Source: Escherichia coli (GTDB lineage: Bacteria > Pseudomonadota > Gammaproteobacteria > Enterobacterales > Enterobacteriaceae). Taken from it: a stretch of DNA of 64,000 nt. The stretch is from the NCBI RefSeq assembly GCF_045037415.1, contig NZ_CP173438.1; one strand, given 5' to 3'. The notes under the pieces are model-generated. The model had not been told where the DNA came from. It saw only the letters and a program-made list of their open reading frames with translations, and did not search any database. The position numbers were made by a program, and so were the translations under genes. Positions within the stretch are counted from its first letter, which is position 1, and every line of letters starts with the position of its first letter. This document shows, piece by piece, positions 4,118 to 5,828 of the stretch.

Positions 4118-5038
4118 TTACTCCAGCACCCTCTCTAGCTTATTCACCGCCGCCACATACTTCGCCGGATTTTTATCTTTAAGCATCGCCAGATTGCGTT
4201 GCTTCCAGCGAATAGCCGGAAGATGCTGAATTTCAGGATAGCGATACCGCGACCAGTCAGGGCTGTTTTGCTTAAAACTGAGCAAGAACTCGCGATCCAG
4301 ATCCGTAAAATGTGACTTCAACGCCTGCGGCAGCAAAGTCGTTACTGACAGAAGCGATTCCAGCGACGTTTCCTGCTGAGTCATCCCCGAAAATTCCTGA
4401 GCGTATAACGTGGCAATCCGATCTGTATCCCAGTTTGAAGCCAGCAACTCGGCAATGGGACGGGGATGGCCTGCCAGATAACAAAGAAAACCGTCAAAAA
4501 TTTCGCGCGTCAGGCCCGGTCTCCCCAGCATATTCAACACATCAAACAGATCGCGCGGATGCTGACGATCAAGCGCAGCACATATTTTACCGCCATAAAG
4601 ATCCGCCAGCGAGACGACACTCATGGTGGTGAAGCCATACTCCATTTCCACACGTTCGCACACAGGCATTTCTGCCGGAGGCAACAACAGCCCGCGCCAG
4701 ACCGGGCTAACCTCGATCTTAATCTTTGCATCAGCGGTATTCACAATGATGCGCTTTTCATCCGCTTTATTTTCCTGCCGAATCGCGGTGATCCCCGGTC
4801 TGCCGTTCAGCGATGCAGTAATTCTCTTCAAAGCGTCGTTGATCGCCGCCAGATCGGTATCGCGATCCGCAAAGCTCTTATACGCCAGATCGATATCCAC
4901 CGATAGACGGGGGAAATCCTGCACAAATAAATTGATTGCTGTGCCGCCTTTCAACGCGAAACAGGATTCCTTCGCCACATGCGGCAGAGCGGCCATCAAC
5001 AGTTTAACCTGCCTGGCATAGCTATCACGCAGATCCAT
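4118..5038 (-). CDS. AbiEii-family nucleotidyltransferase (type IV toxin, DUF1814)
   Basis: Motif KGGTAINLF...RLSVDIDL characteristic of AbiEii NTases; start taken at MDLRDSY. Confidence 0.8.
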   Translation of the reverse strand: MDLRDSYARQVKLLMAALPHVAKESCFALKGGTAINLFVQDFPRLSVDIDLAYKSFADRDTDLAAINDALKRITASLNGRPGITAIRQENKADEKRIIVNTADAKIKIEVSPVWRGLLLPPAEMPVCERVEMEYGFTTMSVVSLADLYGGKICAALDRQHPRDLFDVLNMLGRPGLTREIFDGFLCYLAGHPRPIAELLASNWDTDRIATLYAQEFSGMTQQETSLESLLSVTTLLPQALKSHFTDLDREFLLSFKQNSPDWSRYRYPEIQHLPAIRWKQRNLAMLKDKNPAKYVAAVNKLERVLE

Positions 5039-5828
5039 CTTCGACTCCTTCCGGTTTAAATGTGCGGGGAACAGTAATTTGATAATCCGGCTCCAGCCAG
5101 CCACCAGGTATGATTTGCCGCTTTCCCGTACCTGTTTCTATACCGCTTTGATCAAGATACTGAAAATAAGGGTGTCCATTACGCCGGGCAAGGTAAAGCA
5201 TCACCCGGTTGGTTTTAATCGAATGACTGGCGCGAAGCAGTGCCTGCAATTTGCGTGGGCTGAGAAGATTCCCCCCCTGAAACAGAGCATCGGCATGTTC
5301 GAACGAGATCAACGAAGGAACGCCGCAGGCGATCTCATACGCGGCCAGTTCCGGTGCACTGCCTGCTAACTGCCGGTCGCCAATTTTCAGTTCCGTAGTA
5401 AATGACGAGACATCAACGGTAAGGCCCGATGTATACAGCGTGATAAATGTTGCTGATTGTTCGAAGGCAGCAAACCATCCCGGCAGTTTGACGTAAGCCG
5501 GAAGCGCGAGCCAGACCTGCGGCTTACCCGGTTCGGTATAGTGCGCATGGCCCTGAAGCGCAAGGCTGGTTAGCCCCGCCACCCGAACAGGCTTTTCCCA
5601 CTGTGTTTGAAGGCAGTAAACCGCGTCTACCCAATCCGGCTCACGGCCCGTCCGGCAGTACACACCGTGAGCGATGCGCCTGAGCCAGCCATTCTGAACA
5701 TAGAGATAAGAAAGCTTACGATCTACGCCATTGCGGGTAAGCCATGACTGGAGCAGCACCTGACCGGGTAGCGTGTTTTGCATCAACCAGTTTAGATAGT
5801 TTGGCAAATGTCGCTCCTGAATAGACAT
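5025..5828 (-). CDS. AbiEi-family antitoxin/transcriptional regulator
   Basis: 267-aa ORF immediately upstream of and overlapping the AbiEii gene by 14 nt; partner position and size fit AbiEi. Confidence 0.65.
   Translation of the reverse strand: MSIQERHLPNYLNWLMQNTLPGQVLLQSWLTRNGVDRKLSYLYVQNGWLRRIAHGVYCRTGREPDWVDAVYCLQTQWEKPVRVAGLTSLALQGHAHYTEPGKPQVWLALPAYVKLPGWFAAFEQSATFITLYTSGLTVDVSSFTTELKIGDRQLAGSAPELAAYEIACGVPSLISFEHADALFQGGNLLSPRKLQALLRASHSIKTNRVMLYLARRNGHPYFQYLDQSGIETGTGKRQIIPGGWLEPDYQITVPRTFKPEGVEDGSA

Follow-up and report, generated by a model that had tools for sequence, protein, structure and literature searches.

What do the two overlapping minus-strand genes at positions 4118-5828 of a 64,000-nucleotide (nt) stretch of Escherichia coli DNA (RefSeq assembly GCF_045037415.1, contig NZ_CP173438.1; the whole stretch is called the window below) do for the cell that carries them? 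A first-pass annotation, made from the letters alone, had taken them for an AbiEi/AbiEii pair that, together with an adjacent restriction-modification (R-M) system, makes a two-layer defence module. Few defence and toxin-antitoxin families are as abundant as AbiE. The identification of the pair is correct but not new, the locus being ordinary and already annotated. From the analysis described below, we conclude that the pair is probably a functional, autorepressed toxin-antitoxin module, which belongs to the AbiEi_3 / Rv2827c-like class and lies on the genomic island GI-thrW.

The interval is taken up by two open reading frames (ORFs) on the minus strand, which the ORF list places at 5025..5828 (267 amino acids (aa) from an ATG) and 4118..5104. 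The realistic start of the toxin gene, abiEii (4118..5038, minus strand), is the ATG at 5038, which gives a protein of 306 aa ending at 4118 and has a Shine-Dalgarno sequence, AAGGAG, at 5050-5045, within abiEi. For the antitoxin/repressor gene, abiEi, there are two in-frame candidates. The TTG at 5807 has AGGAG upstream at 5818-5814, is the start used by RefSeq, and yields 260 aa, a length typical of homologues; the ATG at 5828 is without a Shine-Dalgarno sequence, and its codon is TTG in other genera. Because of the upstream AGGAG, the homologue length, and the RefSeq start, abiEi probably begins at TTG 5807 (5025..5807, minus strand) and not at ATG 5828, the start codon having probably been mis-set by the longest-ORF rule. 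The abiEi stop and the abiEii start overlap by exactly the 14 nt (5025..5038, minus strand) that had been reported earlier. The same overlap is found in the RefSeq annotation of identical DNA and in E. coli variants, Brenneria, and Pectobacterium; in Buttiauxella, it is 8 nt. The order of the genes, antitoxin first and toxin second on one strand, overlapping and by their layout bicistronic, reads as the usual AbiE arrangement, and the pair does adjoin R-M genes, with hsdR, on the opposite strand, beginning at 6091, 283 nt from the abiEi start.

The Pfam search that the first-pass annotation had proposed as a check matched both the AbiEii (DUF1814) family and the AbiEi N-terminal domain. The AbiEii protein scored 125.9 bits (3.2e-36) against Pfam AbiEii/PF08843, whose curated cut-off is 22.5, and matched the PADLOC model AbiEii PDLC02290 over its full length (4.6e-115). 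The GGT...R.S.DID signature noted earlier was read as K30-G-G-T33 and R44-L-S46-V-D48-I-D50 and is invariant in the 26 homologues compared (54-91% identity). Residues G31-G32, R44, S46, D48, D50, K151, R158, R162, D163, and D166, invariant in the same set, form motifs I (G31-G32), II (R44/S46/D48/D50), III (K151..R158), and IV (R162-D163-L-F-D166), which correspond to the motifs I (hGG/S), II (DxD, with R and S/T upstream), III (K...R), and IV (+DxxD) defined by Dy 2014 (PMC3985639). Toxicity of Streptococcus agalactiae AbiEii requires G49, R63, D67, D69, K173, R180, and D192 (same source), and R63-x-T65-x-D67-x-D69 of that protein maps to R44-x-S46-x-D48-x-D50 of the E. coli protein by motif pattern rather than by residue-level alignment. 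The invariant S46 stands where a Ser/Thr phosphoacceptor is expected, two residues ahead of the first catalytic Asp. T33 of the GGT motif, an earlier candidate for the phosphoacceptor, was dropped once this mapping had been made. An AlphaFold2 (AF2) model of AbiEii built from the homologue alignment (predicted local distance difference test score, pLDDT, 88) was compared with the PDB by Foldseek. Four significant matches (E <= 0.001) were obtained, all of them DUF1814 toxins: MenT4 (6y56), the best, at E 2e-8; JHP933 (4ok0); and MenT3 (6y5u and 7c46). The predicted fold and the motifs identify AbiEii as a polymerase-beta-type nucleotidyltransferase of the DUF1814 group with all four catalytic motifs present. 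Its C-terminus is 3 residues shorter than in other genera, which is true of every E. coli allele examined.

The AbiEi protein matched Pfam AbiEi_3_N (3.7e-29) and AbiEi_3 (5.9e-34) far above the curated cut-offs, and PADLOC AbiEi over its full length (7.5e-78); neither AbiEi nor AbiEii matched any NCBIfam family. In its AF2 model, likewise built from a homologue alignment (pLDDT 91), the secondary structure agrees with the Pfam domains and with the Foldseek matches, the top PDB folds being Rv2827c (1zel, 1e-9) and S. agalactiae AbiEi (6y8q, 5e-7). The C-terminal domain weakly resembles minimal nucleotidyltransferases in the Foldseek comparison, a likeness noted for the AbiEi family in Beck 2020 (PMC7319586). 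The model presents AbiEi as an N-terminal winged-helix domain followed by a C-terminal domain, as in Rv2827c and S. agalactiae AbiEi. The AbiEi/AbiEii identity of the pair is supported by the Pfam and PADLOC matches, the conserved motifs, the predicted folds, and the RefSeq annotation. Both genes are intact, without internal stops. Ratios of nonsynonymous to synonymous substitution (dN/dS), calculated by the Nei-Gojobori method against three E. coli alleles, Brenneria, and Pectobacterium (synonymous divergence of the alleles, 5-40%), were 0.07-0.17 for abiEi and 0.07-0.10 for abiEii. Both genes are under purifying selection.

The region upstream of abiEi contains a repeated pattern that may serve as an operator. 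The pattern GTTT-N16-GTC has 11 matches in the window, four of which are found either in the 150 bp preceding the abiEi start or across that start. These half-sites, 23 nt each, are located at 5790-5812 (plus strand), 5824-5846 (minus), 5883-5905 (plus), and 5917-5939 (minus), and they make two convergent inverted-repeat pairs, with gaps of 11 nt inside the pairs and 36 nt between them. The proximal inverted repeat (5790..5846, minus strand), found by repeat search, is a predicted AbiEi operator and covers both the AGGAG at 5818-5814 and the TTG start; the distal one (5883..5939, minus strand), recognised by comparing orthologous upstream regions, is a predicted second operator. The proximal pair is present at the same register in all seven loci compared. 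The distances of all four half-sites from the abiEi start are unchanged in two further E. coli alleles and in Brenneria and Pectobacterium, while the intergenic sequence around them has diverged. In the two loci with replaced upstream DNA, E. coli TB06052 (locus L004) and Buttiauxella noackiae (locus L007), the distal pair is absent and the proximal pair is kept. The proximal repeat alone is marginally unusual, its 17/23 being reached in 3 of 300 shuffles; the case for an operator is carried by the four-site pattern and its positional conservation and not by a single repeat.

A putative σ70 promoter (5848..5876, minus strand), read manually and sub-threshold, sits between the two inverted repeats. 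It consists of a -35 element TTGCTG (5876-5871), a 17-nt spacer, and a -10 element TACACT (5853-5848); the TTG of the former and the TAnnnT of the latter are kept in most aligned loci. In Mycobacterium tuberculosis, the sites bound by Rv2827c are two pairs of 23-bp inverted repeats, the gap within a pair being 13 bp; autorepression through them has been demonstrated by electrophoretic mobility shift assay and lacZ fusions, and S. agalactiae AbiEi also binds 23-bp repeats (Beck 2020, PMC7319586). Since the layout in the window parallels the experimentally defined Rv2827c operator, autorepression of AbiEi through the four half-sites is predicted.

Taken together, these features suggest how the module may work. 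Free AbiEii would add nucleotides to the 3'-CCA ends of tRNA, so that charging and translation would be blocked and growth would be arrested; the arrest, in turn, would abort phage infection or penalise loss of the island. AbiEi would neutralise the toxin, the likeliest route being that its binding triggers auto-phosphorylation of AbiEii on Ser46; the alternative is an undefined, non-phosphorylating route of the MenA4/MenT4 kind. AbiEi would also repress its own promoter via the four half-sites, which flank the -35 and -10 elements and cover the ribosome-binding site. Both activities have precedents. Antitoxin-induced auto-phosphorylation and tRNA-directed nucleotidyltransferase activity have been described for S. 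agalactiae AbiEii and MenT1/3, with T65 of S. agalactiae AbiEii auto-phosphorylated on AbiEi binding and S78 of MenT3 as the equivalent residue (bioRxiv 10.64898/2026.01.19.700257). Type VII systems of this kind are characterised by complex formation, with a conserved loop of the antitoxin (D85/E86/I87 in AbiEi) reaching the active site of the toxin. Judging by this analogy, AbiEii is rather probably a tRNA 3'-end nucleotidyltransferase, while neutralisation via S46 auto-phosphorylation is put forward tentatively.

Several observations weigh against this scheme. A PDB sequence search returned no relevant match for either protein, nor, even at E <= 10, for a profile of the 26 toxin sequences; the residue mapping therefore rests on the motif pattern, and fold comparison is the sole link of both proteins to the MenT4, Rv2827c, and AbiEi structures in the PDB. 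The proximal repeat extends into coding sequence with one of its arms, and its conservation may partly reflect constraint on the protein. A scan for the σ70 consensus called no promoter and found just one weak internal terminator-like site; the proposed -35 and -10 elements are weak. MenT4 and Rv2827c have been reported as non-interacting and without phosphorylation (bioRxiv 10.64898/2026.01.19.700257), and, as these are the closest solved structures, we hold the S46 route to be uncertain. Finally, E. coli carrying S. agalactiae AbiE was not protected against any of 32 coliphages, which means that a phage-defence phenotype of the E. coli pair cannot be assumed. That the pair gives measurable protection against phages is conceivable, if somewhat less probable than that it does not, and such protection may coexist with, or be secondary to, stabilisation of the island.

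The island itself was defined from its flanks. Genes ykgJ and yagU lie at the low end of the window and thrW at 14 kb, with proA/proB just past thrW in the reference strain. The chromosome is of the E. coli sequence type 131 (ST131) kind, and the island is GI-thrW of ST131. It spans 11.6 kb between an intact tRNA-Thr(CGT) gene, thrW (14011-14086), which bounds it, and a 45-nt direct repeat of the thrW 3' end (2422..2466, identical to 14011-14055), which marks the far end, and it contains an integrase pseudogene, abiEii, abiEi, hsdR, hsdM, hsdS, and small 'ash family' and hypothetical genes. The tyrosine integrase pseudogene (2634..3953, plus strand) is convergent with abiEii; its Pfam Arm-DNA-bind_3 and Phage_integrase domains fall on two separate ORFs, and RefSeq records an 'internal stop'. 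Between it and abiEii, RNA folding of 3945-4125 (z = -3.3) predicted a strong hairpin (GAGUAAGAGAUCG...CGAUCUCUACUC; 3968..4005, minus strand) ca. 115 nt 3' of the abiEii stop and without a U-tract, which is possibly a transcript end or recombination-site debris. No Rfam RNA family was matched in 3900-6200. A further integrase fragment is present at ca. 2264-2407, outside the 45-nt repeat, and suggests remnants of a second element. At the other end, in the DNA from hsdS to thrW (12994-13879), the small 'ash family' genes and the hypothetical genes are accompanied by a fragment of the C-terminal part of an integrase, a content characteristic of what P4-like (CP4-6-type) satellites leave behind at thrW. 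Comparison of 1800-2420 with positions 1-8850 of loci L002 and L003 revealed that the ST131-type window is without the block of paoABCD, major facilitator superfamily transporter, hydrolase, and LysR genes that is found between yagU and abiE in other E. coli lineages.

The abiE DNA was found in 832 of 5,426 complete E. coli genomes, at 99% identity or more in 519 of the 832, and it is identical across hundreds of ST131 genomes. In the seven RefSeq records inspected, the genes are named AbiEii/AbiGii toxin and type IV AbiEi antitoxin. A distant blastn search returned full-length matches only in the 832 genomes; other E. coli AbiEii genes were matched over ca. 70-95 nt, in the motif region. On the question whether the capsule-linked AbiE of CFT073 (PMC12488582) is the same system, this blastn result indicates only that any other AbiE loci in E. 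coli are distant at the DNA level. According to a published survey, 82% of ST131 strains have AbiEii, the locus being unstated (PMC10790755), and Hochhauser et al. found AbiEii to be limited to three E. coli defence hotspots. The GI-thrW papers that were consulted do not discuss AbiE, and the word 'abortive' does not occur. Some ST131 genomes have IS1 or ISEc52 inserted in the abiE pair (NR1430; O25:H4 strain 18044, in which abiEii is split); the toxin can therefore be lost without lethality.

The R-M system that adjoins the pair is EcoMIII, which methylates RTACN4GTG in ST131 strain EC958 (Forde 2015, PMC4659465; PMC4134206). In the window, hsdR (6091-9189, plus strand; Pfam HSDR_N, ResIII, and SWI2_SNF2) and hsdM (9183-10820, plus strand; Pfam N6_Mtase) are intact and annotated as such in RefSeq. 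The specificity gene hsdS (10810..12834, plus strand), aligned with the intact 1,248-nt hsdS of ST131 strain 4/1-1, is disrupted twice. One lesion is a 768-bp IS1 element (11087-11854) with the 8-bp target duplication GAAGGTTA on either side (11079-11086 and 11855-11862); the other is a +1 frameshift, caused near 12505 by one A too many in a poly-A run. A homopolymer sequencing error might account for the frameshift but not for the IS1 insertion. None of the 5,426 complete E. coli genomes has the IS1-hsdS junction; the insertion is therefore private and recent. A type I R-M enzyme needs HsdS for both restriction and modification. With this gene broken, the EcoMIII layer is, by the sequence, most probably inactive in this strain, and the two-layer module proposed in the first-pass annotation fails here. 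The R-M partner being dead, it would be wrong to credit the strain with two layers of defence. Relatives in which hsdS is intact, namely EC958-type ST131, ETEC4070, and Pectobacterium, do have the two-layer design.

The gene divergent from abiEi varies between strains. The slot is occupied by hsdRMS in ST131, ETEC4070, and Pectobacterium brasiliense. In MRSN346647-type E. coli, which has an abiE class of 93% identity, it holds a 1,069-aa UG5-nitrilase defence reverse transcriptase (DRT; PADLOC RT_UG5-nitrilase, E = 0; L002, 11007-14216), and in TB06052 (L004, 11131-12629), a 323-aa DUF4747 protein and a 165-aa hypothetical protein, followed by IS1. No PADLOC model matched the TB06052 DUF4747 protein or its 165-aa partner, and the two could be an uncharacterised defence candidate. 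In Buttiauxella noackiae, a Lamassu system (LmuA, LmuC, LmuB; L007, 9936-13605) is located just downstream of abiEii. The homology shared by ST131 and MRSN346647 is bounded by the abiEii stop codon and by position ca. 6034; judged by these limits, the AbiE genes and their regulatory region act as a conserved cassette, next to which the cargo can be exchanged.

A constant cassette next to changing cargo could mean that the pair is mainly an addiction module that stabilises the thrW island and not a phage-defence system. On this account, loss of the island would cut off the antitoxin supply and cause arrest, which would keep a decaying island and its swappable cargo in the lineage. The position of AbiE at the island edge, by the integrase pseudogene, and its constancy while the cargo switches between R-M, DRT, and the DUF4747 pair are consistent with this, as is the failure of S. 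agalactiae AbiE to protect against coliphages. The integrase is dead, yet AbiE is still under purifying selection, and AbiE has been reported to stabilise an integrative and conjugative element in Streptococcus suis (PMC11062541). However, stabilisation is compatible with defence, and the module is always found among defence genes, including Lamassu in Buttiauxella; phages are affected by Lactococcus lactis AbiE and by the related RlegTA and SanaTA. Moreover, IS insertions inside abiE are tolerated by some strains, and AbiEi-type antitoxins have been described as stable folded proteins (PMC7319586), which fits classical post-segregational killing poorly. We consider a mainly stabilising role unlikely, while regarding it as the alternative to be taken most seriously.

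The second alternative is that AbiEi also controls the divergent cargo, here hsdR, through the distal repeat, and acts as a regulatory hub for whatever occupies the slot. In strains with differing cargo, the conserved AbiE cassette reaches ca. 95 nt past the distal repeat, to ca. 6034, and the distance from the distal repeat to the hsdR start is 120-150 nt in both E. coli and Pectobacterium. There is, however, no half-site within 150 nt of hsdR; the loci without the distal repeat, L004 and L007, keep their neighbouring genes; and in Rv2827c, two repeat pairs suffice for autoregulation alone. Control of the cargo by AbiEi is, on this evidence, improbable. We attach similarly little weight to the speculative extension in which the AbiE cassette (the genes and a regulatory region of ca. 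230 nt with the four half-sites) anchors the thrW-island cargo slot, AbiEi co-regulates or stabilises the occupant, and the DUF4747 pair is an undescribed defence system. It is very improbable that the pair has lost all activity and persists as a relic of a degraded island, for although the island shows decay (the integrase pseudogene, the integrase fragments, and IS1 in hsdS) and AbiEii is 3 residues short at its C-terminus, the ORFs are intact with dN/dS of 0.07-0.17, the catalytic residues, ribosome-binding sites, and operator sites are all preserved, and the DNA is identical across hundreds of ST131 genomes.

The reading of the pair as an active, self-repressing toxin-antitoxin module adds modestly to what was known, namely, the four-site operator and the context of an exchangeable slot. 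The four-site operator is a testable prediction for regulation in the AbiEi_3 class, which resembles M. tuberculosis Rv2827c and has yet to be characterised in such detail. Since ST131 is a lineage of major clinical importance and a target of phage therapy, blocking of phages by AbiE would be of some practical relevance.

Among known systems, the AbiE-2 module of Serratia sp. ATCC 39006 (AbiE-A2/AbiE-T2) is, because its antitoxin is of the AbiEi_3 type, probably the closest experimentally validated relative; Serratia-genus database homologues are 53-55% identical to AbiEii of the window. Both modules have an enterobacterial host and a DUF1814 toxin with a candidate phosphoacceptor S46, which in AbiE-T2 is the equivalent of S. 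agalactiae T65 according to Hampton et al. 2020 (PMC7725324). The Serratia toxin causes a 10^6-fold drop in viable count and perturbs tRNA pools, and its cognate antitoxin rescues the cells (same source). The genomic context differs, and no operator has been described for AbiE-2.

The M. tuberculosis pair Rv2827c-Rv2826c (MenA4-MenT4) is the best structural match to both proteins and shares the two pairs of 23-bp repeats, though sequence identity to the E. coli pair is just 15-17%. The gaps in the Rv2827c operator are 13 bp within and 4 bp between pairs, compared with 11 bp and 36 bp in E. coli, where, unlike in Rv2827c, the proximal pair runs into the coding region. MenT4 is reportedly specific for GTP, undergoes no phosphorylation, and is not a binding partner of MenA4. 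S. agalactiae AbiEi-AbiEii (SAG1284/1285) and L. lactis pNP40 AbiE resemble the E. coli pair in their bicistronic overlapping operons, in the four nucleotidyltransferase motifs including R-x-[ST]-x-D-x-D, in an antitoxin made of a winged helix-turn-helix and a C-terminal domain, and in an operator of 23-bp inverted repeats. They differ in a gene overlap of 4 nt versus 14 nt, in having a single repeat pair with a 3-bp gap, and in an antitoxin of ca. 195 aa that belongs to Pfam AbiEi_4/DUF4095 and has a structural identity of 11% to E. coli AbiEi; more recently, S. agalactiae AbiE has been proposed as a type VII system that acts via T65 auto-phosphorylation. GI-thrW of ST131 EC958 is the same island, with the same insertion site and gene order and with abiE DNA that is 100% identical, and differs in that hsdS, destroyed by IS1 and a frameshift in the window strain, is whole in EC958.

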